Source of the DNA: a virus
Taxonomy: Duplodnaviria > Caudoviricetes
DNA length: 25,664 nt
Reading direction: 5' to 3' (one strand)
Virus record (IMG/VR): IMGVR_UViG_3300017766_001736
Span: 1 to 25,664 of that record
This document shows, one piece after another, positions 527-25,664 of this stretch. The notes beneath the pieces were generated by a model that did no database searches, had not been told where the DNA came from, and saw only the letters and a program-made list of their open reading frames with translations. The position numbers and the translations under genes were made by a program. Each line of letters opens with the position of its first letter. The stretch's first letter is position 1.

Positions 527-582
527 TAACAAAATATGCAGTCTAGTTGTGTTAGTGTGAATAATTTGATTATCTTTATGAT

Positions 583-1573: not shown

Positions 1574-2326
1574 CACCGCTTTATGCAAGCAACAATGGAA
1601 TTAATTGATCAGCAAGAATATATTTCATGGGCATTACCTAAGAACTGGCACATTGTATTGACTTCTAATCCAGATAATGGTGACTATAATGTAACTGCAT
1701 TAGATGTTGCTCAAAAGACTAGATTTATCTCAGTTGAGGTTAAGTTTGATATTAATGTATGGGCTAAGTGGGCAGAGCAAGTTGGTATTGATGGTAGATG
1801 TATTAACTTTATGTTGATGCACCCAGAAGTAGTAACTCAAAGAGTTAATCCAAGAGCTATTACTACTTTCTTCAATGCTATTAGTTCTATTGAGAAGTTT
1901 GAAGAGCAGTTACCATTAATCCAAATGATTGGTGAGGGTTCTGTTGGAGCTGAGTTCTCTAGTATGTTTACTATGTTCATTAATAATAAAATGGATAAAA
2001 TCATTTCTCCTCAAGATATTATGACTAATACTAATGAGGCATATGTAGTTGGAGCATTGAATGGTGCTGTAGGTAACGGAGATGATTTTAGAGCTGACAT
2101 CAGTAGTATTATTACTACAAGGATTATTAACTATTCATTGAAGTATGCATCTGAGCACAGCATCAGTGATACAATGATTAACCGTTTGGTTAAATTGACT
2201 ACAGACTGTGATGCATTCACTAATGATCTTAGATATTATATGGTTAAAGAGATTTTAGCTGGTAATAAACCTAAGTTTGCTAGATTAATGCAGAATCCAC
2301 TTGTAGTTAAAATGGCAGTTAAATAA
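1574..2326 (+). CDS. MoxR-like AAA+ ATPase, exon 2
   Basis: Continues after Walker B: HRFMQATMELID, sensor-1-like LTSNP, Arg-finger-like AQKTRF, lid NPRAITTF. The ORF-track ATG at 1571 is the end of the intron (omega G). Confidence 0.9.
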   Translation, partial: HRFMQATMELIDQQEYISWALPKNWHIVLTSNPDNGDYNVTALDVAQKTRFISVEVKFDINVWAKWAEQVGIDGRCINFMLMHPEVVTQRVNPRAITTFFNAISSIEKFEEQLPLIQMIGEGSVGAEFSSMFTMFINNKMDKIISPQDIMTNTNEAYVVGALNGAVGNGDDFRADISSIITTRIINYSLKYASEHSISDTMINRLVKLTTDCDAFTNDLRYYMVKEILAGNKPKFARLMQNPLVVKMAVK

Positions 2327-2379: not shown

Positions 2380-3678
2380 ATGGAAAATACATTAATATTT
2401 CATGTATCATTAGGTGACACAGATTTTTATGATAATCATGATTTAAATTTATTAAGTTTTGATGTTGAAATTGATACAAAAATAGGTCAATTTAATGATT
2501 ATGGTAAATCTAGTATAACTTATCCTAATATACAACAAGGATATGAACCACAGTTAAATGATAAAGTATATCTAGCTAAATATACTAGTATACCAAGAGT
2601 TAAACTTAAAAATCTTACAAAAGAATATAAGATTAAGTCAACTATTGATATGAATTCAGCAACAGCAGTATTTGTATCTATAGAAAATATGCATAAGTTG
2701 ACTGAAAATCATTGGTATTATAAAGCAAATGCATCTGTAATAAGAGAATTTTTTACACAAGCACATGCATTAAAGCATATTGATGATTATTACTTTGATA
2801 AAGTTACTACAGCACTTGATTTTGTTACAAATGAATATGTTTGTCTTAGTTATCATAGTAAAAATGTATTAGAATATAAACATATACCATATGCAATTAC
2901 ATCTGGTATTGAAATGAATTCTAGTTCATTTGTTTATATTAAGGAAAAAGATACATATGATGCTGTAGTTAATTCTACTGTTCCTGTATATTCTGAATCT
3001 GACTTACTTAAATATATAAATGGTTCAGATGCATTACCTATTGAAGGAGAAATGTATGAGAGTTTATGTGAGATGTTTAATAGTTCTGACAATGATAACT
3101 GGACATTAGCTATGGAGATTATGGCTAATTCAAACTTTGAAGATAGTTTATTGTACTTAGGTTTGTTATTTTATAATTATGCTAATAAAATGCAGACTAA
3201 TAAAACTAGAAATCATGTTAACTTCAAGTCTTTATTGGCATTAATGGAAATAAAAGGTGGTTACTATCATTTAAATATTGATGAAATTACTATTAGACTT
3301 AAAAAGCATGGTAAGTTAACAAAAGATAACCTTGATATATTGCTAAAGCATCTAGGGGGAGACATAATAAGAAACGGTGATACTCAGATTTTTAAAGTAA
3401 AAACTGTTACTTTATCTGAAAATTTCTTACAAAGTTTAAATGAAAACTATACATTAACATTTGTTGATGATTATGTACCTTCCCCTGTTGAAGAAGAAGA
3501 AGTTAATGAAACAGTAGTTGACTTAGAAACAGAAGCAGTAGAATCAACTGTTGAAGAAACAGAAACTATTACTGAAGAAGTTGTAGAACCAGTTGAAGAG
3601 ATAATAACTAAAGTGGTTATTGATTTTGATAATGTTATTGTAGAACCTAAAACAAATAATGATGGCTATTTCTTATAG
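2380..3678 (+). CDS. Hypothetical phage protein with acidic low-complexity C-terminal tail
   Basis: 432-aa ORF with genome-typical codon usage; E/T/V-rich tail ending DGYFL; no catalytic motif recognised. Confidence 0.8.
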   Translation: MENTLIFHVSLGDTDFYDNHDLNLLSFDVEIDTKIGQFNDYGKSSITYPNIQQGYEPQLNDKVYLAKYTSIPRVKLKNLTKEYKIKSTIDMNSATAVFVSIENMHKLTENHWYYKANASVIREFFTQAHALKHIDDYYFDKVTTALDFVTNEYVCLSYHSKNVLEYKHIPYAITSGIEMNSSSFVYIKEKDTYDAVVNSTVPVYSESDLLKYINGSDALPIEGEMYESLCEMFNSSDNDNWTLAMEIMANSNFEDSLLYLGLLFYNYANKMQTNKTRNHVNFKSLLALMEIKGGYYHLNIDEITIRLKKHGKLTKDNLDILLKHLGGDIIRNGDTQIFKVKTVTLSENFLQSLNENYTLTFVDDYVPSPVEEEEVNETVVDLETEAVESTVEETETITEEVVEPVEEIITKVVIDFDNVIVEPKTNNDGYFL

Positions 3679-4669
3679 TGAAGAGTTAGAACAATTTTAT
3701 AAAAGTGACTTTTATTTTAGTTACTCAAGTATAAATAAATTATTATATTCACCATCTGCTTTTTATAAGCACTATATCTTAAATCAAAGAGAAGATATGG
3801 TGGATGCACATTTAGTAGCTGGTAAGGTACTACATTGTCTGATACTTGAACCAGAAAAATTTGATGAAGAATTTATTGTAATACCTAGTAATCTACCAAA
3901 AGACAACAATAAGTTGTTGGTAGATGAAGTATTTAAGGTTTATCAATCACAACCTGATACTGATTTAACATTGGCTGATTTCCCAGAAACAATTATTAGT
4001 GTATTAGCAGGTATCAATTTGCATCAATCACTTAAAACTGATGAAAGTAGAATTGCAAAAATGGTTACTGAACAGAATTCACAGTACTTTGAGTTTTTAA
4101 AAGTAAAACAAAACAAGACTATTGTTGATCAGGCAACACTTGATACAGCAAAAGAATCTGCTGAATTGTTGAAAAACCATGAAGTTGTAAGAGATTTAAT
4201 GCAACTGGACAAAGAAAAAGATGAAAAAATTAAAGTGTTTAATGAAGAAGGTGTACAATTAAGGTCAAGTAAGTATAAGTTTGGCTTTAAAGGTATATTA
4301 GATAATGTAGTCATGGACTATAATACTAAAACCTTATTTATTAATGACTTGAAAACTACTGGTAAAGCTATTCAAGATTTCCCAGACTCAGTACAATATT
4401 ACAAATATTGGATACAGGCCGTCATGTATAAACAATTGAGTTTAGGTAAATATCTTAAAGATTTACCAGACTGGGCTGAATGGAATATTGTTATTACTTT
4501 TATAGTGATTGATAGAAATAATTTAATATATCCATTTCAAGTATCTAGTGAAACATTAAAGGTATGGGAAGAAGACTTTAAAGAGATACTTAATGTGATT
4601 GAGTATCATTATAACAATAAAGATTTTACTTTGCCATATGATTTAGCAACAAAAAATGTAAAATTGTAA
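3659..4669 (+). CDS. PD-(D/E)XK exonuclease (RecE/ExoVIII, DUF3799-like)
   Basis: FSYSSINKLL, GKVLHCLILEPEKF, KGILD...INDLKTT, YWIQAVMY motifs. Start at 3659 or 3662. Confidence 0.85.
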   Translation: MMAISYSEELEQFYKSDFYFSYSSINKLLYSPSAFYKHYILNQREDMVDAHLVAGKVLHCLILEPEKFDEEFIVIPSNLPKDNNKLLVDEVFKVYQSQPDTDLTLADFPETIISVLAGINLHQSLKTDESRIAKMVTEQNSQYFEFLKVKQNKTIVDQATLDTAKESAELLKNHEVVRDLMQLDKEKDEKIKVFNEEGVQLRSSKYKFGFKGILDNVVMDYNTKTLFINDLKTTGKAIQDFPDSVQYYKYWIQAVMYKQLSLGKYLKDLPDWAEWNIVITFIVIDRNNLIYPFQVSSETLKVWEEDFKEILNVIEYHYNNKDFTLPYDLATKNVKL

Positions 4670-9809: not shown

Positions 9810-9844
9810 AAGGGAGAGCCAATTACGGTTCTCCCTTTTTTTTT
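9810..9844. terminator. Probably bidirectional terminator between the convergent modules
   Basis: AAGGGAGAGCC-aattac-GGTTCTCCCTT 11-bp stem; T9 on +, A-rich left flank gives TTATTTATTTT on -. Confidence 0.82.
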
Positions 9845-9985: not shown

Positions 9986-12900
9986 TTATCTTAATAAACT
10001 TTCAAATCCTTTAACTGCTTCTTCTGGAGCAATGTTATTTCCTGAATAACCCATTAGTTTTAAGAAATAAGCCCAAGCTTTATTATCTCCTTTTTCCCAT
10101 ATACCAGTATCTCTTTTATACTCTTCAGTTATATTCCATGGCATTATTTGAGCAATTACACGTACTATTCTTTCTAGTGTACCTGTTACAGCAGATGGTG
10201 ATTTTATTACACGCATTGCATCTCCAGGATTTATATAACTTGCTGTTTCACTACGCATTCTAACTAACTCATACATTATAAAATTATATGCATAAGATTT
10301 TCTTATTGCTTCATCATCAGGATCATCTCCACTAAATGCATAAGCTAATATAGCAGCAAGACCAGCTAATGTAAGTATAATTGACAACTCAGTTAATGTT
10401 CTTGTTATCTGTGCTTTTTCAAATGTAGAATATGTTGACCAGTTTTTTACAACATTAAATTTCATATTTTTAATATCTCTTAGCATAGTTGAAGCAAAAG
10501 TTCTATAGTAACCTTCTGTTGGACTACCAAGTTCTTGATCCATAGATACTTTTTTAAATCTTCTTTTATAACCAGGTACTAAATGTTTTTTATACATTAA
10601 AGCTAATCTACCTAATGAAAATCTTTGTACTGTAGCTTTATCAAAATCATTATATACACCATGTAATCTTTTACTTAATGCATGTAGTTTATTTTGAAAG
10701 CCAAATCTTTTCTTAGATGTAAAGTCAGTATTATCAAATATACCATCAGTACCATATTTTTTATAAGCTTCATGTAAAGTTATTTCTTCACCTGTTGCAT
10801 TATCTTTTACTTTTGTAGCATCCATTAATGCAAACATTGCAGATACTTGTATTTCATACTCACCCCAATGCTGGTTAAAGAATAATGTATTAGATCTCAT
10901 TAACTTTCTAGCAGCAGTCTGAGATACATTTTTACCATATTCATCTTTAAAGTTACCTTGCATTGGATCATATTCCTCTATTAACTTACCAGTTAATGAT
11001 TCTGGTGTTGACTTACCAAAGTCTGCTAATATATTTGGAACTACTGCAGCAAATTCTTTTTTACCTTTAAAATAATTTTTTGAAGAAAAGAATTCACCTG
11101 AGCTAGCTTCAATAATTAATTGTATATTACCTTGTAAGTTATTAGCAACACCTTTTAATACATCAGCTGCAATTGTTGTAACAGCTGAGAATCCAGTAAT
11201 TGTATTAGTAATTTTTGCTGCAGAAAAACCAAATAATTCTTCTGCTTTTTGCATTTCATTATATACAACCATGTCAATAAATGCATCAACATGTTTTTTA
11301 GAATAACTCTCACCATTCTTTCTTAAGAACTCATCAAAGCCTATTTTTTTAGCAAAAGCATCTCTAATAGGTTTACCAGTTGATGTATTAGCAATTACTT
11401 CTCTTTCACCAATAATAGTTTTAAATAAGTTTATTTCATTACCAATTCTATTTAATGCTTCATATCTATTAGACATAGCACTAAACATTAATACTGATCT
11501 TACTAAATCTAAACTAACATCTTCTGCTGGCATATCAGTTGTAAAATCTACTGGTAAAAATTTAACACCTTCTTCTGATAAACTACCAATACCAAAATCA
11601 ACATCTTCTGCAGTAATAGATGTAGCACTTTTAAACTTATGTTTAACTAAAGCTTTCATCCCTTTAGTTTGTGCATATTCAAAATCAGTTTTATATATTG
11701 ATGGAAGTAGATAACCTCTTTGTTGAGTCTCTGGTAATTTTTCTTGTGCTTCAAAATACTGATTAACTAAATATTGATGGTATTCACCTTTAGCATTTTT
11801 TGGTTTATCATTCTTATCATATAATGCTTCCCAATTTGAGTTTATATAATCTATTGATGGCTCACTTAATTCACCTTTATAATATACAGTACCATCTTTA
11901 CTAGTTACTTGTACACTTTCAACCCATGCTTCATAGTCATTTTGACTAAGTATACCTTTATTTTTTAATTTTTGTTTTGATGCAAATATTTTATCAATTT
12001 CTTCTTGTGTCTTAGCTACAGTATTTTTTCTGTACCACTCATTTTTTGTTTTAGTTTGTTGTGCATCTGACATTCCTGCAAGTGAAGCATACATTTGTTT
12101 TTTAGCAGCATTGAATTTATTCATATCATGCTTCTGTACAAATGCTACTTTTTTAATTGTCTCTTCAGTACCATCACTTTTAGTTTTAGTAAAAGTTAAA
12201 AACTCATAAATACCTTCATTGAATTTACCTGGATTATTTTGACTTGCGGGTACAGTAGTTTTATATTTTTCAAATTCTGCACTTGCTATATTTTTAATTT
12301 TAATGTCATCTAATCTAGCCATTTCCATTTCAGTCTTTACAGCAACTGCAAATAAACCTAGTGACTCATCATTAGATGATATTAATGGACTAATTAAAAA
12401 ATCAATAACACCTTCATCTTTAGTAGCTCTAGTTAATATTTCTACTAAAGATTTTTTATCTAGTGAAAAATTTGTCCATACATTTATCTCTTCCTGTATT
12501 CTAAGTTTTTCTTTTTCTTTTGTCTCTGTAGCTAACCTTTGTTTAAGTGACTCAATATGTGGTTGTATTCTATCTTCTATACCTTCTGCTTGGTACTCTA
12601 ATAACCATTCTGCCATTAAAGGTATACCAACTTGTACATATTTCTTTTTAATATTGTTTTTTACAGTTATTGCATATGTTAGCATCTCCTGAGCAGTTTT
12701 ATTTGAATCAGAATCTTTTTCATCTACTTCAGATGAGAAATAATTATAAACATCTTGTTTACTTATCTCATCTAGTATTGAGTAACCATTAGCAAAATCA
12801 TTTATAGCAGCAAGTTCAACTAGTAATTCTTTTCTATCTGCAGTACTTGCTTTTTGTAATATTGCTTCAAAAGCTAGTGATGCATTTTTTGATTTGTTAA

Positions 12901-13258
12901 ATGCTTCTTTAACAAACATGTTAATAGAATCCACACCATCTAATGCTTTTAATGTATCAAGTAATTTTTTCTTTTCTTCAAGTACTTTTTCTTGTTTCTT
13001 GAACTTTTTACCCTCAATCATTTTGATTTCTTTACTCACATATAAACGCATTTTATCCACTAAAGAGGATAACTTATCCTCTCTACTGTCTTCTGGGTCT
13101 TCTTGTGAATCTTTATCAGCTATATCATACTCATTTAAATCATCATTATCCTCAAAACCTCTTTCAACCCAGAGCTCTTTTGCTCTTTCTTCATTGCCAT
13201 TAGCTTCTTTAAGAATATCTTGATACTCCTGACTAGTTTTAATTGGGCACTTTAACAT
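9986..13258 (-). CDS. Large putative virion cargo/ejection protein with C-terminal TM segment
   Basis: 1090 aa, overlaps the RNAP stop by 7 nt; hydrophobic LSIILTLAGLAAILAYAF at about 10334-10387; single Cys (C4). Role inferred from crAss-like synteny. Confidence 0.7.
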   Translation of the reverse strand: MLKCPIKTSQEYQDILKEANGNEERAKELWVERGFEDNDDLNEYDIADKDSQEDPEDSREDKLSSLVDKMRLYVSKEIKMIEGKKFKKQEKVLEEKKKLLDTLKALDGVDSINMFVKEAFNKSKNASLAFEAILQKASTADRKELLVELAAINDFANGYSILDEISKQDVYNYFSSEVDEKDSDSNKTAQEMLTYAITVKNNIKKKYVQVGIPLMAEWLLEYQAEGIEDRIQPHIESLKQRLATETKEKEKLRIQEEINVWTNFSLDKKSLVEILTRATKDEGVIDFLISPLISSNDESLGLFAVAVKTEMEMARLDDIKIKNIASAEFEKYKTTVPASQNNPGKFNEGIYEFLTFTKTKSDGTEETIKKVAFVQKHDMNKFNAAKKQMYASLAGMSDAQQTKTKNEWYRKNTVAKTQEEIDKIFASKQKLKNKGILSQNDYEAWVESVQVTSKDGTVYYKGELSEPSIDYINSNWEALYDKNDKPKNAKGEYHQYLVNQYFEAQEKLPETQQRGYLLPSIYKTDFEYAQTKGMKALVKHKFKSATSITAEDVDFGIGSLSEEGVKFLPVDFTTDMPAEDVSLDLVRSVLMFSAMSNRYEALNRIGNEINLFKTIIGEREVIANTSTGKPIRDAFAKKIGFDEFLRKNGESYSKKHVDAFIDMVVYNEMQKAEELFGFSAAKITNTITGFSAVTTIAADVLKGVANNLQGNIQLIIEASSGEFFSSKNYFKGKKEFAAVVPNILADFGKSTPESLTGKLIEEYDPMQGNFKDEYGKNVSQTAARKLMRSNTLFFNQHWGEYEIQVSAMFALMDATKVKDNATGEEITLHEAYKKYGTDGIFDNTDFTSKKRFGFQNKLHALSKRLHGVYNDFDKATVQRFSLGRLALMYKKHLVPGYKRRFKKVSMDQELGSPTEGYYRTFASTMLRDIKNMKFNVVKNWSTYSTFEKAQITRTLTELSIILTLAGLAAILAYAFSGDDPDDEAIRKSYAYNFIMYELVRMRSETASYINPGDAMRVIKSPSAVTGTLERIVRVIAQIMPWNITEEYKRDTGIWEKGDNKAWAYFLKLMGYSGNNIAPEEAVKGFESLLR

Positions 13259-16200
13259 ATTGCTTTAAGTATTTTATTTATTAAATTGTTTAACTGACGC
13301 TGAGTTGACTGAGGATCAGTTGTAAGTTTATTTATTGCACCAAATACATCTTTAATATCAATACCTTTAAGGGCTAATATGTTATCTAATTTGTATTCTT
13401 TAACACCATTTATAACTTGTTTTGTAAAGTTATATAATTGTTTTTGATTAACAGGTGTGTCTAATGCAGTTTCTTCTACAATCTTACCAGTAAACATATT
13501 CATGTTTTTCATGAATATTGAACCTGTAGTTTTATCAACTAAATCATATAAGTTCATATTATTCAATACCCATTTACTTGGACCAACAATAAACTCTTTA
13601 GGCATTCTACCTAGTTTTGCTACTTCAGCATTGAATGCTTTCATATTTTTGTCTATCTCTGGTTCTTCAGTAATATCTGATTCACTTTTACTTACTTCTT
13701 TAACATTATAGTTTTTTCTTAAATCTTCAAGTGCTGCTTGATTTATTCTATCTTCATACTGACCAGTTGTCTCACCTTCTTGTTTAAAGATAGTATCATG
13801 TTTAACTTCATGTATTAAAGCAAATGTAAACCACTCATCAACAGTATTGAACTCATTTTCAGCTAAAGGTGTTGCATAACTTCCATCTAATTGTTTAGTT
13901 GGTTTAGTCCATGATTTATCATTAAATTTTTGTTGCATTGCTTTTGCATCAATGCTTATTACTCCTGTAGTTCTATTATTACTCATAGCAACAACAGCAT
14001 CTTTATTAGTTGTAATTTTATCTACAAAGTTTAATGGTTTATTTCTAAATGATTTTTTCTCTAAACCTTTATTAATTGTAAAAATCTCTTTCTTTTTAAC
14101 TTCACTTACTGGTTGAGTAGATAGTTGAGTAGCTTTAAATGTATTAGTATATACATCTCTAATAGCTTGTTTAGCAGCTGCTTCTACTTCAGGTCCTTTG
14201 TATTGAGCTCTAGGTACCCATTTACCATCTTTTTGTACATTATAATTTTCTATATCTCTACTACCTACACCAGCAAAGTTCTTAGTAAGAGTTGGTGTAT
14301 TTATTTCTTTCCAACCATTATAATTCCATTCATATTTAGTACTATCATAACCAGTTTTAAGAAACTCTGTATCTTGTGTATACCATTTTTTTGTATCTAA
14401 ATCAAATACATATACTGGTTTACCCATTTTTATTCCTAATTGAACAGCAGTATTTGTTCCACCCATAACTTCAGGTTTTGTAGTAGGTTTTATTTCAGCA
14501 ACAGCAAATACAGCATCTGCATTAGCTACTTGATAATAATTTCTTACTTGTAAGTTTCCTTGTAATGTATCTGGATATTTTTCTCCAAGCAATCTCTCTA
14601 CCTCATTACGGGCTTTATCCATCTGTTCTTTAGTAAGAATTGTAGCTTTAACACCTGCGTTTCTAAGTTTTTGAGATAAATTTGGATTACCTGCATCTTT
14701 ATAATGTCTTTGATCAGTGATACCGAATTCTCTACCTATCATGTCCCAGAAAGTATCACCTCCATAAGCACCACCAGAATGATTAGTATATTCAGATGCA
14801 TTAGTACTAACAGTTTGTTGTTGAGAAGGTTGAGTACCAAATGTAATAGTTTGTTCATTCTCACTTACATTACCTAATGGTAAGTTCTCTTCACTGTCAT
14901 ATTGAGTATCTGTTTTACTGCTTTGTTTTCTTGGTCCGGTATAACTAGATTTTAAATAATTATTCTGGCCAAACTCATTAGCAAATAATAAGTTAGCAAT
15001 CTCAGTAAGTGTTTTATTATTTAAGTTATTTTCTAAAAACTCTCTTGAACTTGGTTCTAGTAATGAGAAGTATACATCATCTGGTAGTACATAACTTAAA
15101 CCATACTTAGTATTACCAACTCCATTTTGATAAATAGACATAAGTGGTAATACTTTGAATGTATCAGATATAACTTGATTCTCTACAGGGTCTTTAACTT
15201 TAATAACATTATCATCAGCAAGATCTATTAAGTTTTGATAGTATGCTTCAGCTAATTCACCTTTAACAGCACTCTTATTATTTAATGTAATAGTTTTAGT
15301 AGTTACTGTTACAACCTCCTTTCCTTCTTTCTTTTTATTTTTAATAGTTACATCACTTAACTGTTCTAATATTGGGAATCTTTCTTTTAGGTTATTATGC
15401 TTACTTAATGTAAACATAAAATTATCTACAAATTCTTCTGTATCAAGATTATTAAATGATTCTGGTATACCTGGATAGCCTTCTTCACTATTTACTGCAT
15501 CATATAATTTATTTTGATAAATATAGTTTATAATAGCATTTTTATATGAAGATATAAATGCTTGTACCCCATCTCTACCTGGTCCAAATTTAGATGTAAT
15601 ATCACCACCTCTTGATTTTATTGTATCTAACATAAAATCAGATACTGTTTTATTATTAGTAACATTAAATAAAGGAGCAACAACATCATTAACAATAGCT
15701 TTGTCAAAGAATGTACCTAATATAGATTCTTTTAATAATCTTTCAGCTAATTCAGGTTCTATTTTAGATGAGTCAGCTGCTTCTTCTAGTGATACAACTT
15801 TTTGTAATATCTCTTGAATTGTTTTTGATGTTTTAGTATCTGGGTTAGCCTGTCTTTTTAAATTAGATATACCTTTGATTTCTCTTTCAAATTCTAAGAA
15901 ATGTAAAAATGCAGCTATTGCATTAGGACTAGACTTATCATAATCCTTAATATTTTTAGATAACTCATTTTCAGTAAACTGATTAATACCTTCAGTAGCT
16001 ACTTGTGTAACATAATACCAGTTATCATTTGATAATAAGTGATTTTTATTTACTGCTGTATATAATGGTATTGTTTTTTTATTACCATAAGCATCTTCTT
16101 TAGGTTTACCATTTTCATCTAATACATATTTAGGATCAGTATATTTTACAGATAATATATCTGATTGTTTAATACGTCCTGCATTAATTGCATCTAATAG

Positions 16201-19200
16201 ACTTTTAGGTAAACCTTCTTTAGTATCACCATTTCTAAACTGAACTGTGATTTTATCTGTTGCTGTTTTAAGAGCTTCAAACATTTTTAATCTTGATGCT
16301 TCCTTAATAAGTTTAGTATCAGATGATAATCTAGTTTGAGCTAATGTATTTTGTAACGCTTTATATTTTATAAAACTTGGACTATCAACTCCATTTTCTG
16401 TAATACCTGCATATGCACTTTTAACTAATCTTTGTTGTCTTGCATATTCTTTTACTAATGGTTGAGACACAAAGTATACAGCTTCTCTTTTAGGAACACC
16501 AGCTTTTAATAATGAAAGTAATACTGGTACAATTTCTTTATTAGCTTGAATAAAGAATATCCATGCATCTTTCTCAACGTCAACTGCACCATTCATTAAG
16601 TGTGAAAATAAATCTGCAATCTTATCTTTACCGTCAACACTATTAATACCTGATAATGAGATTCTACCATCTTTAGTTTTATTATGGTCAAGTAATAATC
16701 TCATTTTGTAGTCTACATCCTCAAGTTCTTTATAAACTTTATTATTATCATCCCATGTTTGATGCTTATATGTTTTAGGTAAAGCAGCTCCTAATGATGT
16801 AAATAATGGATGCAATGCATTCTCTAGAGCAATAATACCTAATACATCTTTACCAACCATGTTTGCCTCATGTTTGTGTAAGTTATATCCTACTTCAAAT
16901 ATATCTGTTGGACTAATTGTTTTAAACTCTTTATACTCTGGTGAGTCATCAACTAATTCATCCGCAATATCTTGTAACAGGTATGTATCATTAGGTCTAA
17001 CTAATGTAGCATAGTTATTAGGTAACTCAAGTATACCTCTAATAGAATCAATTAATTTATTTTCTAAAGCTGCTTTTTGTAACTTGATTAGTCTTGTCAT
17101 TTCAGCTTTATCACCTTTCTTTTTAGATGCAGCAATAAGTCTATCTAATGTTTCAGTATCCATACCTGATTCAACATATTGACCTCTTGCATCTATATTA
17201 GGCATAAATGTAGTAAGCTTATCAACGTCATAATCCGCACCTGACTTAGCAACAATCTCTGATGGGGGTATAATAATATTACCTGCAGATGGATCTAAGA
17301 ACTCATATACTTCCATAAACTCCATAGAGTTTAATCCTTGTACCGGAATCCTTACAGCTGTCATAGTGATAGCTTTACGGTTATTACCTGTATTCAACCA
17401 CTTATCATCTTTAATCATCTCATTTAATCTTTCTCTTGTACCAATAACTTCTCCGTCATTGTCTTTAAGTTTTAAAAGATTATTAAAGTCACCTTGTAAA
17501 GCAATAGCAACTTTCATTGCAGCTGTTTTACCACTAACTGATTTTACTTTTGGAGTTTTACCAGCAATTATATCATTTAAATAATTGATTTCAACTCTTA
17601 AGTTTTCCTTATTTGTATCAGTATAGTATTTAGCTTGGTCAGCTAGTATATCTGTATATTTTTTAAGAGCTTCTTTAAGTTTATCTTGTGTATACCCGTT
17701 ATATTTATCATCAAGATTAATATCTTCAGGATGATAGAATGGTAAGTTATTACTACCTAAGTATTTTTCTATGTCTTTAGTTTCTGCTTTATCAAATTTA
17801 AAACCTGAATCCCACAATCCATTAGACATAGAACTTGCTACCTGTACTAAAGCCTCACCTTTAACTTTCTGTTTAACAATTCTTTTTTCAACTAAAACCA
17901 CAAGCATTTTCTCAATATCATCTGATAATAAGTGTAATGATAAGTCTTTAGTTATTTTATTGTCTTTACCTACCTGAATATATTTTACTAAGTGTTCTGG
18001 TAATTCTTTTCTTTCTAGTTCTCTTTGAACTACATCCATGAACTTAGTAATATCACCACTTACATATTTACCATTAACTTTCTCATATCCAATTTCTTCA
18101 AGTAATTCTTTCTTAAGTAAATCAGTATAATTAGCAATAGCATCTTCATATGCTTTAATATATGGAGCATAATCTTTATTTACTATTTCTCCATTTTCAT
18201 ATAAACCTTCAAGAATAAGTTTTCTTAACTGAGTTGAGAATACAGTTTTACCTTTGTACTTAGTAGGTACAGATGTAACATTTTTAAGATATGATAAGTA
18301 TATAGTATTAGGTGTAAACTTAATATCTGATTTTATTTTCTTTTGTAAACCTTTATCATCATATATCTGATCAGCTTTACCATCAGAAGTAATACTACCT
18401 ACTTTAGAACCAGTTTGGAATGTAGCATATTGTATATTAGATTTCATCATCTGATGATGTAATGACTCTAAGTCAGAACCTTTTATCACAGATGGAATTA
18501 ATGGCATCAATGCAAACTTATGCATTGCATTAACAGGTAAAGCTGTATTAGCTAAATGACCAAAGTGTTGTAATTTATATACTGGAAAGAATCTTACTAC
18601 ATTTTCAGCTTTAATTGGTCTATCATTAATAACATCTTGGAATAACTTTTCTTGTTCAGCTCCCCAATTATTTTCTGCTAATCTTAAATTACGGTATGCA
18701 TCAATAGTTATAAAACCTTGACCATCACCTTCTTCCATTTTAGTATATTTCTTTAACTCTTTTTTTAATCTGTAATCAATCTCAGCTTGTGATAGTTTTG
18801 ATTTTTTATAGTCATCTCTTAATGCTTTCTCAATATTTTTAATATATATTGAATCTCTTTCAACATCCTGCATAATTGCAGTATTAAAAGTATTAGTATA
18901 ATTAAACTTGTTATATTTTTCACCAAAGTTTGAATCTTTAGCTAACTTATAACCATAAGAAGACTTTTTAATAAGGTCACTCTGTAAAAAGTTTTGAGTA
19001 TAGACATCATCCATAAAACCTCTACCACCAGATGTAGAACCAGTATTTCTCTTATGCATTTCTTGTTTAGCATGATTATACTGTGTTGTATCACCATAGA
19101 TTAAGTTAGCAGTCTCAAAGTTATGAATCCATGAATTCATTGTATATGCTTTTACAAGTAACTCATGTTTATCTGAATCTTCTAAAGTAGAAAATACATT

Positions 19201-22200
19201 AAGCTTATTCATTAAAGCTGGGTCATAAAATGGAGACTCAGAAAACTTTTCATAGTTTTTAATTGACTGACCATTAAAGTATTCAGTTATTTGATTAGCA
19301 ATAATAGCTTTAACTTGAGGATTTTTATTTAAGTAATCTCTTAAATCACCGTCTTTAACTTCATCAATTAATTGATCTTTAGTATCTTTACTTAATATTT
19401 TATCAAATGCTGTAAATACTTCACCTGCATATATAGGATTTTCTTTAGTACCAACATTTCTATTGTAACCTTTATAGTTTTTAAATAAGTCTATATTAGC
19501 TTTAAAAGTTTGGATTCTTTTTAACTCAGCTTGTATGTACCCAATAAATATATTATCAATGGCATAGTCATATCCATTACCATTAGGTCCAAACATTTCA
19601 ATATCTACATATAAGTTACTCTTTTTCTTTTTAAGTCCACCTGAAATACCATTTGATACTTTCATACCAAATGAAGATGACTTAGAAGCATGTCTCATAA
19701 ACTCAGTGATACCTGATTTTAACATCATGTTCAATTCTTGGATATACTTACTTTGAACATCTAATGAAGTTGTATTAGCTCCTGTATTATCACTCACAAT
19801 TTGAGTACCTGCTACCATTGATAATTCAATTTTAGAATCACCTTTTCTAGCATTAAGTGTTACACCATCATTAAAGAAAATATTTTTTAAGATTTGTGAC
19901 TCTAATGTAAATGAGTTTATATTAGGATTAAGGTAACTCATGTATTGGTAACTATCTCCATTCCATAGATCTTTACCATTAGTTACATTATTAATAGCAT
20001 CAACAACTAAACTTACTGTATTATCTTCAATGAATTCATTAACTAGATTCTTTTCTGGGTTTAATACACTAAAGCTTGAGTAATTAGTACCGTATGTACT
20101 TTGTAGTTCAGCTAATCTTTTAATTATATTTTTTTCTGATGTAGTTTCTTTATAAATTCCTGCAGGTATATCACCATATAATGCACCAACTGGATTTGAT
20201 TTAAACTTTTTTACAAAGTTTTTATGTTCAGTACTTGCATTTTCATCTTTACTTATTTTATGTAATTCTTTAACAATATTAAATAAAGATGGTAAGCCAT
20301 AATATTCTTGTCTATTATTTAACTCTCTTTTTAATAAAGCTAAATCTTGTAAACCTATACCTAATGCATTAGCAAAAGGTATAGCAACCTCACTACTAAA
20401 TGATTTACGGTCAAAGTCCTCAACAAGTTTATCCAAGTTTAGTATAGACTTATTATCTGCAGTCTTATTGATATAATTAGTTTTTTGAGAAGCTTTAAAA
20501 TTACTACTAAACTTATCTACAATATTTTTAAACTCAATAGATGCATCGGTAACCTCAGATGAATAACCATTACCATCACTGTCATCAATTGTTAACTGAA
20601 TATATTTTAACTTAGTTTTCTTAAAGTCTTGCCAGAATGCAGCTTTAATATTAAACTCTTCAAGGTCATTTATATTTGTTGGATCCGGTATCTTATTAGC
20701 TACTAATTGTTTTAACTCAGGAAAAGCTACTGTAGCTGCATTAAGTTTTTGATACATCTTAACTGGATCCTTTTCACCACCAATAACTTTAGTAACTATA
20801 TTCCATGTTTTACTAAAATCTGCTAGTTCAGGGAAACCTAATTTACCTATTACTTGTTTATTATTATCAGAAAGTTTAAATAAACTTTTTAATATATATA
20901 GTGTTTCTTTCTCAGCTAGTTGTAATAATGATTTTTCACCTACTTTTTTATCAGAAAATTTTTCTGATTCTTCTGCATTCTCTGGTGCACTATTATCATC
21001 ATCTTCAGATACTTCATCATCAGATTCTATCTCAATATACTTTTGCTTGATTAAATCAAATGTACTATTATCAATATGGAATTTAATAACACCAGTTTTA
21101 GCATCACCCCAGTTTTTAATAGTTGCCTCAAGTATTCTTACTTTATCTTTTAATGATGTTACTTTATTAAAGTCATCTTCATCTGCTGCTTCAAGTTGTG
21201 CTTTGAAATAGTTTAACTTTTCTTCAAATCTTCCTTTTATAACATTGTATGCTACAGCTTTATTAGTATCATCAGTTAATAATTTTATTGTACCACTTCT
21301 TGTTGCTTTAGTAATTAGTCCTTCTTTTTCTGCAGCAACTCTATCATTATATACTTCATCAATTAATTGTGATAAAGCAGAATCAATTTGACTTGATACA
21401 GTCATAGAGTCCTGGAAACTTAAAGCTAATTCATTTGACTCAACATCCATTACACCCCTATCTCTATTAAGGACATTGAACATTGCATTATCAACAAGTG
21501 GTGTGTACTTATTTAAAAGTTTAGGGTTCTTACTTGCAAAGAATAGTCTTTCAAATAAATCTTCTTGAGTAGATCTCTTACCAAATAATGTTTTAATAAA
21601 GTTCCATATTCTTCTGAATATAGTATTTCTTACAGGAGCATCACCTACAGCTTTAGGATCTTTAGCATAAGTTCTATATTCTTCAGCTATTATTTCCTCT
21701 ACCTCAAGTGGAGAAAGATCATAGTTGTTTAATCTTTTTCTTGTCTCAGCATATAACTTAGTCTTTTGTTTTTTAGTTAAGTATAACTGAGAAAATGCAT
21801 GCCAAGCTTCATGATATAAATCTACAGCAGAACCACCAGTAGCAGTATCTAATTGTATTTTAGTATCTTGTAATCTTTTACCTGCTATAATGAATCTTGC
21901 ATAAACATCAGAGTTAACAATATTAGCCATGTGCTCAAGTTCAATGAACTTGGACAATGGAGAATTATTCCACCATTCTTGTGCTGCGTCAACTTCTTCT
22001 CTAGTAACATTACTAGGTAATTCAGCTGACCTGTTAAACATTGCATAAAATCTAGTCTTACCTGCTGGACTTTCTGTACCTTTTGGTTCAGTGTATTCAT
22101 TATCAGCTTTAGTTGCTTCTTCTTTTATTATCTCAGGTGTTCTTGGTTTTTCTTCTGCAGCATAATCAGTTTCAGCTACTTGACCTATTTTTTTACCTTT

Positions 22201-24297
22201 AGAATCATATATAGAAATAACATCTTTAAATAGTTTATTATCTTCTATGACATCACTTACAATAAAACTTACTGTAATATCATCTTTTGGTAAATTTTTA
22301 ACACTTACACCTTCTTCAAATCTTGCATTAATATATTTATCACCTGCTGTTAAACTAAAAGTTGTTGCATTAAAACTTCCTACAATAACACCTGGTAATG
22401 ATGGGTTTTGTTTTAACTTATCAACTAATTCATCTTTAGCTTGTCTTATAGCTGATCTAGGATCAGTAAATGTTTGTTCTTGTACTTGTTGTTTAGCTTT
22501 TTTTAACTCAGCAGATAATTTTTCATTTACTCTAAATGCAAAGTATGAGTTAAACGCACTAGTATCTGCATTTGGTGTAAAAATAATATTAGGATTAATT
22601 TGTTTTAAAAACTCTCTATAGTCTCCAGTTACAAGTTTACCATCAACATAATCAGTAAACTCAACATTATTCCATAGATCAGCATTATTCTTCATATTAG
22701 CATTATAAGTACCTGACTCATTTGATAATGCCTGAATAATTATTTCTTTAGCTTTTGCTGGATTAGATAAACCTACTGTGAATTTTTTAGGATTTTTTGC
22801 ATCAGTTTTATACTCAAGAATAAGTTCTTGTCTTTCTTTATTATATGATACAAATAGTTTTTTTCTTGACTTATTTATTTTATCATTTGAAAACTGTTCA
22901 TAAAAGTTATACTTTTCAAATGCATTAATAGTAGGATTAGATAATACAGAAGCAATTTTTTCAATCAAATATTTAGGCATATTTTTTCTGTCTACCATAA
23001 ACTCCTGACCATTAATATTGATTACAGTTGTACCTTCTTCAAACCCATCTCTTTTTTCTTTAACAGTAGTAAAGCTATAATTAATATCAATTTTATCTGA
23101 TAATTCTAAAAACTCTGATAACTCTAAATTACGTGCATCATAAAAATCTGGAATACCATTACTGATACTCATTATATCAAGTAACTTCTCATTCTTTTTA
23201 TCAGTTAGAATTTCATTTTTTAAATCAAAAAGAGCTTTGAATTGAGCTTGTTGCTCATCATAAAACATTTTATACAGTTCATCATAACTTTCACCCTTAG
23301 CCTTTAAATCTGCTTTAAATTCATCAAGAGTCATGTCAAGCTTACTAGCATAATTTGTAAGCATATCTTCTACAGACTGTATCTTACTTTCAATACCATA
23401 TATATCTTTAACTTCATATTCATCAGTCTGAGAATTATATGTAGCATTTCTTAAGAATTGATATACTGGTAAACCACCTTCTTCTTTAGATAATATGTCA
23501 CCATCCTTACTAAAGTTTATAATGTTACCTTGTTGATCTGATACTACTAGAACAATAATATCTGATGTTAAATTTGGTCCAATTCCTTTAGCAGAAATTG
23601 CATTACCTTTTGCATATAAATCTGCTGTAGTTTTATCTTTATTTGCAAATTTACTTAAAGGTATTGCTTTAAGGTTTAGTGTTCTACCTTGATAAGTTGG
23701 ACCAGTAATTTTATTTGTTTTACCATTGATTTCTAATTTAATTTTCTCAAGGGTATTATATATCCTTACTCTGTTTTGGTCAATTTCTTCTACAAACAGT
23801 TTACCTTTTTTATTAGGGTTAATAGAAACAAACTGTTGCATAGTAGATGTAAAAGCACTAGATGGTTTATATCTACCTGTATCACCTTCTGTTTCTTCTT
23901 CAGAATATGATGGTGTATTTGTATTTACTCCTTGTGCAATAACGGCATTTTTTAAATCTTTAACACTTGTCTCAGGTCTAAAATATTTTAATGTTTCAAG
24001 TAAACCATTTTCTGGATTTAAAAATTTACCAATTAAAGGTCTTATACTTGCCTCATTAATATTTAGATTAGCTAAACTATAATCACCAATAGCAGTATGC
24101 ATTAATGATGGTACATTCTGTAAAAATTTTGCAGCTGTATCAACATCTGATTTAGATTCAATTGTATTGAATAAATCATTCATATATGATACTGCATTAA
24201 TTTCTTGATTATTATTTAATGAGTCAAATAAGTCTCTATAAATTTTAGCAAATAACTTTTCTATTTGCTTTGTTGTTAAAGCACAAGTAATATTCAT
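13252..24297 (-). CDS. Giant virion-associated single-chain two-barrel DNA-dependent RNA polymerase with fused zincin and SLOG-like domains
   Basis: 3681 aa; RIPVQG (about 17335-17352) followed by GADYDVDK (DxDxD at 17221-17235); beta-like DGQGF and K...HK; zincin HEAWH...EEIIAE (21799-21813); SLOG-like domain about 14135-14795; second HEVKH (13798-13812). Confidence 0.9.
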   Translation of the reverse strand: MNITCALTTKQIEKLFAKIYRDLFDSLNNNQEINAVSYMNDLFNTIESKSDVDTAAKFLQNVPSLMHTAIGDYSLANLNINEASIRPLIGKFLNPENGLLETLKYFRPETSVKDLKNAVIAQGVNTNTPSYSEEETEGDTGRYKPSSAFTSTMQQFVSINPNKKGKLFVEEIDQNRVRIYNTLEKIKLEINGKTNKITGPTYQGRTLNLKAIPLSKFANKDKTTADLYAKGNAISAKGIGPNLTSDIIVLVVSDQQGNIINFSKDGDILSKEEGGLPVYQFLRNATYNSQTDEYEVKDIYGIESKIQSVEDMLTNYASKLDMTLDEFKADLKAKGESYDELYKMFYDEQQAQFKALFDLKNEILTDKKNEKLLDIMSISNGIPDFYDARNLELSEFLELSDKIDINYSFTTVKEKRDGFEEGTTVININGQEFMVDRKNMPKYLIEKIASVLSNPTINAFEKYNFYEQFSNDKINKSRKKLFVSYNKERQELILEYKTDAKNPKKFTVGLSNPAKAKEIIIQALSNESGTYNANMKNNADLWNNVEFTDYVDGKLVTGDYREFLKQINPNIIFTPNADTSAFNSYFAFRVNEKLSAELKKAKQQVQEQTFTDPRSAIRQAKDELVDKLKQNPSLPGVIVGSFNATTFSLTAGDKYINARFEEGVSVKNLPKDDITVSFIVSDVIEDNKLFKDVISIYDSKGKKIGQVAETDYAAEEKPRTPEIIKEEATKADNEYTEPKGTESPAGKTRFYAMFNRSAELPSNVTREEVDAAQEWWNNSPLSKFIELEHMANIVNSDVYARFIIAGKRLQDTKIQLDTATGGSAVDLYHEAWHAFSQLYLTKKQKTKLYAETRKRLNNYDLSPLEVEEIIAEEYRTYAKDPKAVGDAPVRNTIFRRIWNFIKTLFGKRSTQEDLFERLFFASKNPKLLNKYTPLVDNAMFNVLNRDRGVMDVESNELALSFQDSMTVSSQIDSALSQLIDEVYNDRVAAEKEGLITKATRSGTIKLLTDDTNKAVAYNVIKGRFEEKLNYFKAQLEAADEDDFNKVTSLKDKVRILEATIKNWGDAKTGVIKFHIDNSTFDLIKQKYIEIESDDEVSEDDDNSAPENAEESEKFSDKKVGEKSLLQLAEKETLYILKSLFKLSDNNKQVIGKLGFPELADFSKTWNIVTKVIGGEKDPVKMYQKLNAATVAFPELKQLVANKIPDPTNINDLEEFNIKAAFWQDFKKTKLKYIQLTIDDSDGNGYSSEVTDASIEFKNIVDKFSSNFKASQKTNYINKTADNKSILNLDKLVEDFDRKSFSSEVAIPFANALGIGLQDLALLKRELNNRQEYYGLPSLFNIVKELHKISKDENASTEHKNFVKKFKSNPVGALYGDIPAGIYKETTSEKNIIKRLAELQSTYGTNYSSFSVLNPEKNLVNEFIEDNTVSLVVDAINNVTNGKDLWNGDSYQYMSYLNPNINSFTLESQILKNIFFNDGVTLNARKGDSKIELSMVAGTQIVSDNTGANTTSLDVQSKYIQELNMMLKSGITEFMRHASKSSSFGMKVSNGISGGLKKKKSNLYVDIEMFGPNGNGYDYAIDNIFIGYIQAELKRIQTFKANIDLFKNYKGYNRNVGTKENPIYAGEVFTAFDKILSKDTKDQLIDEVKDGDLRDYLNKNPQVKAIIANQITEYFNGQSIKNYEKFSESPFYDPALMNKLNVFSTLEDSDKHELLVKAYTMNSWIHNFETANLIYGDTTQYNHAKQEMHKRNTGSTSGGRGFMDDVYTQNFLQSDLIKKSSYGYKLAKDSNFGEKYNKFNYTNTFNTAIMQDVERDSIYIKNIEKALRDDYKKSKLSQAEIDYRLKKELKKYTKMEEGDGQGFITIDAYRNLRLAENNWGAEQEKLFQDVINDRPIKAENVVRFFPVYKLQHFGHLANTALPVNAMHKFALMPLIPSVIKGSDLESLHHQMMKSNIQYATFQTGSKVGSITSDGKADQIYDDKGLQKKIKSDIKFTPNTIYLSYLKNVTSVPTKYKGKTVFSTQLRKLILEGLYENGEIVNKDYAPYIKAYEDAIANYTDLLKKELLEEIGYEKVNGKYVSGDITKFMDVVQRELERKELPEHLVKYIQVGKDNKITKDLSLHLLSDDIEKMLVVLVEKRIVKQKVKGEALVQVASSMSNGLWDSGFKFDKAETKDIEKYLGSNNLPFYHPEDINLDDKYNGYTQDKLKEALKKYTDILADQAKYYTDTNKENLRVEINYLNDIIAGKTPKVKSVSGKTAAMKVAIALQGDFNNLLKLKDNDGEVIGTRERLNEMIKDDKWLNTGNNRKAITMTAVRIPVQGLNSMEFMEVYEFLDPSAGNIIIPPSEIVAKSGADYDVDKLTTFMPNIDARGQYVESGMDTETLDRLIAASKKKGDKAEMTRLIKLQKAALENKLIDSIRGILELPNNYATLVRPNDTYLLQDIADELVDDSPEYKEFKTISPTDIFEVGYNLHKHEANMVGKDVLGIIALENALHPLFTSLGAALPKTYKHQTWDDNNKVYKELEDVDYKMRLLLDHNKTKDGRISLSGINSVDGKDKIADLFSHLMNGAVDVEKDAWIFFIQANKEIVPVLLSLLKAGVPKREAVYFVSQPLVKEYARQQRLVKSAYAGITENGVDSPSFIKYKALQNTLAQTRLSSDTKLIKEASRLKMFEALKTATDKITVQFRNGDTKEGLPKSLLDAINAGRIKQSDILSVKYTDPKYVLDENGKPKEDAYGNKKTIPLYTAVNKNHLLSNDNWYYVTQVATEGINQFTENELSKNIKDYDKSSPNAIAAFLHFLEFEREIKGISNLKRQANPDTKTSKTIQEILQKVVSLEEAADSSKIEPELAERLLKESILGTFFDKAIVNDVVAPLFNVTNNKTVSDFMLDTIKSRGGDITSKFGPGRDGVQAFISSYKNAIINYIYQNKLYDAVNSEEGYPGIPESFNNLDTEEFVDNFMFTLSKHNNLKERFPILEQLSDVTIKNKKKEGKEVVTVTTKTITLNNKSAVKGELAEAYYQNLIDLADDNVIKVKDPVENQVISDTFKVLPLMSIYQNGVGNTKYGLSYVLPDDVYFSLLEPSSREFLENNLNNKTLTEIANLLFANEFGQNNYLKSSYTGPRKQSSKTDTQYDSEENLPLGNVSENEQTITFGTQPSQQQTVSTNASEYTNHSGGAYGGDTFWDMIGREFGITDQRHYKDAGNPNLSQKLRNAGVKATILTKEQMDKARNEVERLLGEKYPDTLQGNLQVRNYYQVANADAVFAVAEIKPTTKPEVMGGTNTAVQLGIKMGKPVYVFDLDTKKWYTQDTEFLKTGYDSTKYEWNYNGWKEINTPTLTKNFAGVGSRDIENYNVQKDGKWVPRAQYKGPEVEAAAKQAIRDVYTNTFKATQLSTQPVSEVKKKEIFTINKGLEKKSFRNKPLNFVDKITTNKDAVVAMSNNRTTGVISIDAKAMQQKFNDKSWTKPTKQLDGSYATPLAENEFNTVDEWFTFALIHEVKHDTIFKQEGETTGQYEDRINQAALEDLRKNYNVKEVSKSESDITEEPEIDKNMKAFNAEVAKLGRMPKEFIVGPSKWVLNNMNLYDLVDKTTGSIFMKNMNMFTGKIVEETALDTPVNQKQLYNFTKQVINGVKEYKLDNILALKGIDIKDVFGAINKLTTDPQSTQRQLNNLINKILKAIC

Positions 24298-24308
24298 ATT
24301 TAATAATT

Positions 24309-25664
24309 TTATTTACAAGATAAATCTTCAAGTAAATCATTTGTAAGTTCTTCAGCTGTTACATCATTAGATGAAGCTTTATTAATAGCATTTTCAATTG
24401 CTTTTTTGTCACCAATAAAATCAGTTAATGCATTAATTGTTTCTGTAACTGTCTGTTTATCAATTGCATCCAAAACCTCTTGTGTTTTTTCTGCTTGTTT
24501 TACTTCCTCAATTCCCATTGTTGTAACGTGTTTATCCATTTCAGGTAAAGTTAATGTTTTTTCATCATTTCCGTATGTAAAAGATACTGATTTTTCATCA
24601 GATTTCAAAACAGTTAATGTACTACCTGTATCAGCAAACACCTTATCTTTATCCATTATTGGTTCTTTAACAATTACTGTATCACCTTTTTGAAGATTAA
24701 GTTCAGATGCTTTTGTAGCTGTAACATTATTTTCTAAAGTAGCTAGTTCTGTAAATATTTTTTTAGATGCTAAATTAAATAATTCTAAATCTGATTTAGT
24801 TTTTCTGCCTTCTTCAAGTGAGTAACCTGCTACATTTGCTAATCTTTTTGCAGTTGCTTCTTTATTTAAAGATATTTTTTCATTACCTTTTATTTTAGAT
24901 TCATCTAGTACTCTCAAAGAACTTTGATTCTGAAGAACTTCTTTAGATATAATACTGCTTAAAGCAATTGCATCTGTTTCTGTAATATTTTTATTAAGAA
25001 AATTTTGAACAGCATTAATTTGTTTAAATCCATATCCTGATTCAGAATCAACACTGTTTCCTTTTATAACCCAATTACCTTGATCTCCAAAAAACGGATA
25101 CCACTGACCTTTAACTTTAGTATCTGTACCAGAAGTAGATTGATAAAATGGTACTTGTATACCATCTATATTAACGACAACTCCCCATCTTCCTTGTGTT
25201 AAACTGAATATTTGTTTTCCATCTACTTCTATAAGATAGTTATTAGAAAATAACCTTTCTATAAAATCTTTTACAGATTCATCAGGCTTTCTTTCTATAT
25301 CAGCTTTAGCATCTGTAGTACCAACAGTAGATAATTCTGCATCATATTTTTCTTTAAGCTTTTCTTTAACTTTATTTTGATTCCAGCCTTCTACTACTTC
25401 TTCTTCACCTTTTGCATTAGTGTACACTCCATAGTAACCACTATCAGTTGAATAATTAAAACGTATATTGCTATATGCTTTATTTCTTCTTTTTTCTATT
25501 TCTGTAGTATCTAGTACTGGTTCAACAACTGATTTATTTTCAGTAGTTTTTTCTATAGCAGCTAATTCTGCATCATATTTAGTTACAGCATTTAAAACTT
25601 CATTATAATAATTATCTGCACTTACATTGTATGCTTTTGCAGAAGTCTCAATATTTGGTCTATT
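24309..25664 (-). CDS. Large putative virion cargo protein, C-terminal part (5'-truncated)
   Basis: The frame stays open from the ORF-track GTG 25427 to the window edge (79 more codons: NRPNIETSAKAYNV...TKYDAELAAIEK...TEIEKRRNKAY...), giving 451 visible aa; KYDAEL repeats; ends LLEDLSCK. Confidence 0.8.
   Translation of the reverse strand, partial: NRPNIETSAKAYNVSADNYYNEVLNAVTKYDAELAAIEKTTENKSVVEPVLDTTEIEKRRNKAYSNIRFNYSTDSGYYGVYTNAKGEEEVVEGWNQNKVKEKLKEKYDAELSTVGTTDAKADIERKPDESVKDFIERLFSNNYLIEVDGKQIFSLTQGRWGVVVNIDGIQVPFYQSTSGTDTKVKGQWYPFFGDQGNWVIKGNSVDSESGYGFKQINAVQNFLNKNITETDAIALSSIISKEVLQNQSSLRVLDESKIKGNEKISLNKEATAKRLANVAGYSLEEGRKTKSDLELFNLASKKIFTELATLENNVTATKASELNLQKGDTVIVKEPIMDKDKVFADTGSTLTVLKSDEKSVSFTYGNDEKTLTLPEMDKHVTTMGIEEVKQAEKTQEVLDAIDKQTVTETINALTDFIGDKKAIENAINKASSNDVTAEELTNDLLEDLSCK
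25332..25349 (-). repeat. 18-nt direct repeat, copy 2 (encodes KYDAEL)
   Basis: + strand TAATTCTGCATCATATTT, identical to 25563-25580. Confidence 0.85.
25563..25580 (-). repeat. 18-nt direct repeat, copy 1 (encodes KYDAEL)
   Basis: + strand TAATTCTGCATCATATTT, identical to 25332-25349; offset 231 nt, in frame. Confidence 0.85.

Follow-up and report, generated by a model that had tools for sequence, protein, structure and literature searches.

Crassviruses, the most abundant gut phages, package and eject megadaltons of cargo protein in order, and the locus described here bears, through four cysteine (Cys) residues, on how they may do so. The DNA is a stretch of 25,664 nucleotides (nt) from a virus (Duplodnaviria; Caudoviricetes; IMG/VR record IMGVR_UViG_3300017766_001736, positions 1 to 25,664), hereafter called the window. 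Its right half contains three minus-strand reading frames, encoding 451 visible residues of an upstream protein, a virion RNA polymerase (RNAP) of 3681 residues and a protein of 1090 residues. By sequence, these are homologues of the virion RNA-polymerase block of Crassvirales, the first of them by way of its relatives. An initial annotation had placed the only Cys residues of the three proteins at their adjoining termini and proposed that disulfides join the proteins head to tail in gene order. The features concerned are as follows.

24309..25664, minus strand: first chain member, C-terminal 451 residues (gp67/gp47-like cargo), truncated by the contig end; its acidic tail finishes in Cys-Lys
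13252..24297, minus strand: virion RNAP, 3681 residues; homologue of phi14:2 gp66 and crAss001 gp50
9986..13258, minus strand: last chain member, 1090 residues; homologue of phi14:2 gp65 and crAss001 gp49, without a C-terminal Cys
24315..24317, minus strand: Cys 450 of 451 (LSCK) of the upstream protein, donor of junction 1; sequence read directly
24283..24285, minus strand: Cys5 of the RNAP, acceptor of junction 1; invariant in 48 of 48 rows of alignment A1 (RNAPs picked as full-length)
13255..13257, minus strand: Cys3681, the last residue of the RNAP, donor of junction 2
13247..13249, minus strand: Cys4 of the 1090-residue protein, acceptor of junction 2; invariant in alignment A2 (gp65-like proteins)

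A recount agreed exactly with the initial annotation. The three frames total 5,222 residues and contain four Cys, every one at an end facing a neighbouring protein; PolB, taken for comparison, has 8 Cys in 664 residues. The chance that four Cys fall one each in four preset 5-residue windows is about 2e-11, the windows having been picked post hoc. The reservation that a start overlap could force a Cys codon applies to junction 2, where the genes overlap by 7 nt, and does not apply to junction 1, where an 11-nt gap separates them. The upstream protein is, as had been cautioned, only partly visible, being truncated by the contig end. Junction 2 is spanned unaltered by contigs from three of four runs (X6, X7 and X8, from three other studies), X13 stopping too close to it, and junction 1 by contigs from one of four (X7). 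Among the runs, freshwater metagenomes are the top carriers of the window’s DNA, and the share in one RNA run was too small for use. The available genome is the window alone, without the order-level markers (terminase, portal and capsid genes) that would place the phage in Crassvirales.

Conservation of Terminal Cysteines

Tabulation of Cys positions in orthologues, named beforehand as the result that could overturn the proposal, found the terminal residues kept across Crassvirales, with only 34 of 145 C-terminal Cys codons overlapping the next gene, and so did not overturn it. Among RNAP homologues, scored over the first and last 15 residues, a C-terminal Cys is present in 118 of 120 and an N-terminal one in 104 of 120, with 2 internal Cys per 418,961 residues; the 16 lacking the N-terminal residue start at apparent internal starts. 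The gp65-like proteins carry it at the N-terminus in 117 of 121 cases and at the C-terminus in none, which bears out the earlier statement that the end of the series is free of Cys. Complete upstream proteins of related loci show the mirror image, with a C-terminal Cys in 41/41 and no N-terminal Cys in 40/41 (counted by eye). Representatives of clusters at 50% identity behave alike (n = 150; C-terminal Cys in 146, N-terminal in 128, 50 internal Cys per 524,910 residues). As a control, 343 genes of the opposite strand have an N-terminal Cys in 47 cases, a C-terminal one in 15 and both in none. The Cys stands at position -1 to -10 among highly variable flanking residues, and away from the ends the Cys level is 0.0005–0.01%.

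The terminal-Cys rule is obeyed at their termini by 12 of 14 named phages, including two cultured ones. In phi14:2, the residues are C1797 of 1797 in gp67, C3 and C2179 of 2180 in gp66, and C3 in gp65. In crAss001, gp47 has a single Cys (C2339 of 2341), gp50 has C5 and C2404 of 2412, and gp49 has C5; gp47 is encoded on the opposite strand, yet it keeps its C-terminal Cys. The restriction of Cys to the ends is strict in the clade of the window and looser elsewhere.

Pairing of Cysteines at Gene Junctions

In near relatives, the block runs from a Cys-free cargo protein through the first member (C-terminal Cys only), the RNAP (both) and optional adaptors (both) to the last member (N-terminal only). 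Across 191 distinct junctions of these relatives, counted between adjacent plus-strand genes of at least 150 residues, both facing ends bear a Cys in 145 and neither in 46, and one-sided junctions are absent. Order-wide, the corresponding numbers for 135 junctions are 80, 43 and 12. Seven of the 12 one-sided cases adjoin a small unrelated inserted gene, across which the flanking members still pair; two lie outside the block, one involves a frameshifted RNAP and two are real departures (L144 and L182).

Genes inserted between members were observed at L146 13600, L153 8017, L193 14447 and L168 14595. They encode 165–573 residues without a terminal Cys, and the one in L146 is ferritin-like by eye. 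Another arrangement is found in Lbo-JY46 (L005 12355-25261), a two-member Cys pair formed by the last residue of a gp47-like protein and residue 4 of a gp65-like protein; an RNAP motif was looked for in this locus and not found.

Fusion, Fission and Matched End Modules

Several parts of the chain proteins are needed to follow how the Cys pairs behave when genes fuse or split.

17221..17235, minus strand: RNAP catalytic motif DYDVD, D2355-D2359 (GADYDVD at 2353-2359; compare DFDID in phi14:2 gp66)
21799..21813, minus strand: HExxH zincin-like motif, H829-H833, in the RNAP chain (alignment A1)
13255..13680, minus strand: RNAP C-terminal module, residues ~3540-3681, ending in Cys3681; matched by 23 of 24 distinct adaptors
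13124..13258, minus strand: head module of the gp65-like protein, residues ~1-45, with Cys4; a small beta-alpha-alpha-beta fold followed by a loose linker is predicted

The position of the catalytic motif separates two kinds of RNAP. Where it lies less than 2000 residues from the start, an N-terminal Cys is present in 30 of 31 proteins; where it lies at least 2500 residues in, in proteins read as fusions with the first member, the Cys is present in 0 of 19. This count omits 12 rows that lack their 5' end and two with an intermediate motif position. At the other end, fusions of RNAP and gp65 in Intestiviridae (3/3, confirmed by motif and hidden Markov model) have the N-terminal Cys and no C-terminal one, and in an all-in-one protein of 4622 residues, which combines the zincin motif, the RNAP and the gp65 domain, both termini are free of Cys. 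Longer fused gp65 forms are represented by two proteins from a weak search among proteins of up to 5000 residues.

The opposite process, fission with a Cys pair gained at each additional split, is illustrated by the adaptors. All 24 distinct adaptors (242–762 residues) have both Cys, and in 23 of them the C-terminal module is homologous to the final ~140 residues of the window RNAP, the counterpart of that module in relatives being the C-terminal half of a separate adaptor protein of 242–655 residues. Judged from this homology, the window RNAP has absorbed an adaptor’s tail, with no Cys at the seam. In addition, the zincin segment belongs to gp47, before junction 1, in crAss001 and to the RNAP, after junction 1, in the window; the Cys pair thus tracks the split and not a fixed domain.

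The modules at the two sides of a junction also match each other. When 151 junctions were scored with profiles of the window’s tail and head, both types occurred together in 52 and neither in 98, and one was a borderline mismatch. The tail type was carried by an adaptor in 23 cases, by a long protein in 26 and by a cut open reading frame (ORF) in 3. Because shared descent confounds them, a correlation of tail with head similarity (rho 0.43) and an anticorrelation of charge (rho -0.43) carry no weight here as support.

Two unusual loci were noted among these proteins. L050 (7386-26531) contains a 6381-residue ORF with two tandem RNAP-like regions (DFDGD at 2334 and DFDID at 5680) and both terminal Cys. 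In L182 (6104-18098), the RNAP is split right after the catalytic motif, and its second part (871 residues) is a gene of its own with Cys3 and a last Cys.

A Proposed Disulfide-Linked Chain

The explanation that we consider probable, and hold with good though not full confidence, is that cognate tail and head modules dock and that a disulfide then locks them, making a ‘virtual polyprotein’ of the first protein, the RNAP and the last protein. The members would be made separately in the reducing cytoplasm and would first dock non-covalently. After co-packaging, the two thiols at each junction would oxidise following lysis, in the released virion, where Cys-free interiors would leave the intended bond as the sole possibility. 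During ejection with partial unfolding, the bond would hold subunits together while the docking folds open, giving an ordered exit in a fixed ratio, and any link reaching the cytoplasm would be reducible by the host. Most of the confidence falls on separate docking, on co-packaging with oxidation and on the Cys-free interiors. Whether the purpose would be ordered threading or simple stabilisation of the packed cargo is rated about even. Passage through the tail requires partial unfolding of the cargo (PMC10172136), and it is at this stage that a covalent link would matter. The disulfide chain would most likely amount, as a covalent whole, to what certain crassviruses encode as a single fused polyprotein.

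The chemistry has a precedent in a phage whose proteins show no detected homology to the chain. The pre-ejectosome of Anabaena phage A-4L (A4) contains a disulfide, modelled from cryo-electron microscopy, between Cys1715 of gp27 and Cys5 of gp26, with the C-terminal helix of gp27 sitting in a cleft of gp26 (PMC12002296). These are the sole Cys of gp27 (1717 residues) and of gp26 (1114 residues), and Pf-WMP3 retains the pattern with its two genes 138 nt apart. Modelled disulfides are likewise present in the crAss001 virion tail (PMC10172136). The initial proposal of a disulfide chain is therefore supported in part: its head-to-tail topology agrees with the fusion and fission patterns, and its chemistry has a cryo-electron-microscopy precedent with a matching signature. 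Strict gene order does not stand, given the opposite-strand position of crAss001 gp47, and a functional order takes its place. A complex prediction for RNAP residues 3612-3681 with gp65-like residues 1-60, made with alignments, gave a score of 0.03 with controls that did not fold, and speaks neither for nor against the docking.

A number of observations weigh against the proposed chain. The support for disulfides in crassviruses is comparative or by analogy throughout, and A4 gp26 and gp27 have no detected crassvirus homology: the best E values, from small local searches, were 0.044 (profiles A1 and A2 against 9 A4 proteins) and 0.25 (gp26 and gp27 against 440 cargo ORFs), and divergence may be great enough to hide a distant kinship. 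The A4 bond lies in a folded pentameric ring and is described by its authors as ring-stabilising (PMC12002296). Ejection as such needs no links of this kind, because T7 gp15 and gp16 have no Cys and the ejection proteins of Schitoviridae (N4-type) suppress it altogether (PMC11445570); the same suppression accounts for the Cys depletion of the chain, as had been suggested at the outset. Nor is a link needed for catalysis, because recombinant gp66 alone transcribes single-stranded DNA (bioRxiv 10.1101/2020.03.07.982082). Looser forms of the rule also count here: the last Cys lies 50 residues before the end in cr273_1 and 32 in L144, in the first RNAP part of L182 the tail-like Cys, at 1656, has 287 residues after it, gut lineages have up to 13 internal Cys, and gp56 of IAS virus, split inside a run of N, has no N-terminal Cys. 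Moreover, the all-in-one form is one sequence whose upstream neighbour is outside view, and the Suoliviridae proteins described as ‘first protein fused to RNAP’ were so read from length, position and the zincin segment, short of full homology. The tail and head profiles were built partly from the sequences that they scored, and the sequences are related, so that counts are not independent events; 64 order-wide RNAPs, for instance, form 27 clusters at 50% core identity.

Alternative Explanations

The pattern could in principle be an artefact of general Cys depletion combined with codons forced by stop/start overlap. Junction 2 of the window has the commonest spacing, a 7-nt overlap found in 30 of 145 junctions. 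However, 111 of the 145 C-terminal Cys codons are clear of the next gene, with gaps of up to 36 nt, and neither the opposite-strand gp47 of crAss001 nor the widely spaced genes of Pf-WMP3 could be affected. Pairs are lost when genes fuse, return where an additional split occurs and are kept even between genes on different strands, so that gene overlap does not explain them; we regard this account as refuted, with practically no probability left to it. Closure of the RNAP upon itself, Cys5 to Cys3681, with the other two Cys pairing mutually or with their own copies, would suit the presence of both Cys in the RNAP and in every adaptor. It is very improbable: fused RNAP-bearing chains keep one Cys, which is matched by one on the remaining partner, and the tail type goes with the head that comes next in the chain, not with the head of its own protein. 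Alternatively, each terminal Cys could act alone, as a handle that is recognised by a shared packaging factor or a processing enzyme or that carries a lipid. The great order-wide diversity of tail and head sequences, and the few tail Cys found 32–50 residues inside, would be compatible with such a role. Against it, Cys is missing where the series begins and ends (at nearly all first-protein N-termini and at the gp65-like C-termini), Cys are gained and lost pairwise, the all-in-one protein has none, and one tail type always meets one head type. This explanation is unlikely.

Two further alternatives keep the head-to-tail topology and change the bond. The facing Cys may be joined through a common metal ion or some other small bridging group, an arrangement that would need no oxidant and would suit both a reducing cytoplasm and anaerobic gut hosts; junction 1 tails are acidic, with a mean net charge of -4.5 over 25 residues, and a free N-terminal amine adjoins the head Cys. 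However, in 147 of 151 junctions the stretch of 10 residues around each Cys contains neither a second Cys nor a His, and the single solved case with this signature was modelled as a disulfide. A shared ligand thus has a small probability, though the largest of any alternative considered here. The docking may also be non-covalent in life, with the Cys as conserved contacts that become oxidised only during purification in air. Many hosts are anaerobic and the cytoplasm is reducing, and the disulfides of both A4 and crAss001 come from purified particles. On the other hand, no other end residue is conserved order-wide, while Cys is otherwise purged from these proteins, and selection for Cys on both sides would be hard to explain without sulfur chemistry. 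Oxidation in air is accordingly judged improbable, slightly more so than the independent handle. The docked and disulfide-locked chain remains the preferred explanation.

A more general design may extend from this chain, and we propose it tentatively, giving it somewhat less than an even chance. Plug-and-socket modules tipped with Cys would join 2–5 separately encoded cargo proteins (~6,500–7,000 residues) after translation into a redox-cleavable covalent thread that the tail feeds in a fixed order and the host cytoplasm cuts, with new domains added as cassettes and the polymerase itself splittable, as in L182.

Identity and Domains of the Chain Members

The assignment of the three proteins is based on their relatives. 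The upstream fragment is assigned to the gp67/gp47 type from its 451 visible residues via complete relatives: its tail matches that of a complete 2205-residue upstream protein in L019, and the counterpart in L017 matches crAss001 gp47 (E 1.9e-11, single domain). The RNAP matches phi14:2 g066 in tblastn (E 1e-8), and the 1090-residue protein matches phi14:2 gp65 and crAss001 gp49 (E 1e-34 and 2e-50). Homologues of the phi14:2 gp66, gp65 and gp67 types have been found in virions by mass spectrometry, in phi14:2 according to its annotation and in crAss001 according to PMC10172136. In crAss001 (L004 17486-24724), the DFDxD motif lies in gp50 and gp49 is the homologue of gp65; PMC10172136 names gp49 as the homologue of the crystallised RNAP.

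Database and structure searches added little to these assignments. Neither the RNAP nor A2 matched any sequence in the PDB, Pfam offered no named family for any of the three proteins or for six adaptors, and a single-sequence locus search with the first 1000 residues of the RNAP returned zero loci. The adaptor model has a helical C-terminal end, and that of the gp65-like protein has a predicted local distance difference test score of 72–86 at residues 1-40 and below 50 at residues 46-60. Fold searches with both models found only generic three-helix bundles (best Z 10.2 over 91 residues, root-mean-square deviation 2.2). Further domains of the RNAP and the last member are listed below.

14353..14799, minus strand: DprA-like accessory domain, residues 3167-3315, in the variable RNAP tail (phrog_768, E 4e-10)
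10331..10387, minus strand: hydrophobic helix, residues 958-976 of the gp65-like protein; predicted, possible membrane anchor
L041 20849-26656, L030 20245-28566 and L027 22351-28434: long last-member proteins with LysM

The DprA-like domain is flanked by QPS/TQPVS-like linkers, and other add-ons seen in RNAP homologues are NADAR, 2OG-Fe and helicase domains. A hydrophobic window occurs within the last 200 residues of 112 of 121 gp65-like homologues, and a LysM domain lies ~270–320 residues before the C-terminus in all three long last-member proteins tested (1936–2774 residues). Given this conserved helix and the LysM domain of the long forms, the last-member end may remain lodged in the envelope and anchor the RNAP at that site; a similar arrangement has been proposed for the joined units of the N4 virion RNAP (PMC13434306).

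Other Features of the Window

Outside the block, an AAA ATPase gene (phrog_1297; window 104-2326) is split in two by a gene for a GIY-YIG/NUMOD1 endonuclease (583-1332), which has non-coding sequence on either side. The interruption is likely a group I intron, judged by a core motif; an Rfam scan of the window gave zero matches. A strong hairpin with a T run at 9810-9837, between convergent gene blocks, is likely a terminator.

Comparison with Known Systems

The proposed links bear on points raised in the literature. The ejection order of crassvirus cargo is left to packing and mutual interactions (PMC10172136), and work relating the three RNAP-associated proteins to the single chain of N4 is called for (PMC13434306). 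No mention of terminal Cys, or of disulfides, in the cargo proteins of crassviruses was found in the accessible literature, including PMC10172136, the gp66 preprint and PMC7886860; subscription papers, the Nature version of the gp66 study and Extended Data tables were outside this scope. The Cys pairs would explain the free fusion and splitting of the cargo block and provide a sequence rule that separates cargo members from bystander genes. They can also be examined concretely and at low cost, since both cultured phages have the residues concerned identified. Moreover, they may turn one cyanophage disulfide into a general design of podophage ejection proteins.

The closest relatives are gp67/gp66/gp65 of phi14:2 and gp47/gp50/gp49 of crAss001, which are homologous to the window proteins and have matching terminal Cys. 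The window RNAP differs from theirs in its 3681 residues, its inclusion of the zincin segment and the adaptor’s tail that it absorbed. Fusion of the cargo into a polyprotein in some crassviruses has already been published (bioRxiv 10.1101/2020.03.07.982082).

The virion RNAPs of N4 and DEV (Schitoviridae) are similar in being giant, Cys-purged, ejected polymerases, with three linked units (membrane-binding N-terminal domain, core and C-terminal domain) proposed to exit as beads on a string (PMC13434306, PMC11445570). In contrast to the separate genes and proposed disulfide links described here, each is a single T7-like polypeptide with zero Cys. Membership of the window RNAP among the N4-like enzymes was considered and rejected, as it has two Cys, is a DxDxD-type enzyme and gave no such family match.

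Outside phages, the docking domains of polyketide synthases and the COM domains of non-ribosomal peptide synthetases are short matched end modules that order giant proteins and replace a peptide linker at gene splits. They are non-covalent, cytoplasmic and independent of Cys, and the likeness is one of description.

The nearest parallel in chemistry is the cyanopodophage A4 (Saffermanviridae), with consecutive large ejection proteins whose sole Cys lie at the facing ends. There, one link joins two proteins as a local detail, and the pair includes no virion RNAP; in crassviruses, the chain would have at least two links, a variable length and mobile modules, order-wide. A single link of this kind is thus already known from A4, and what would be new here is its multi-link, modular and order-wide form.

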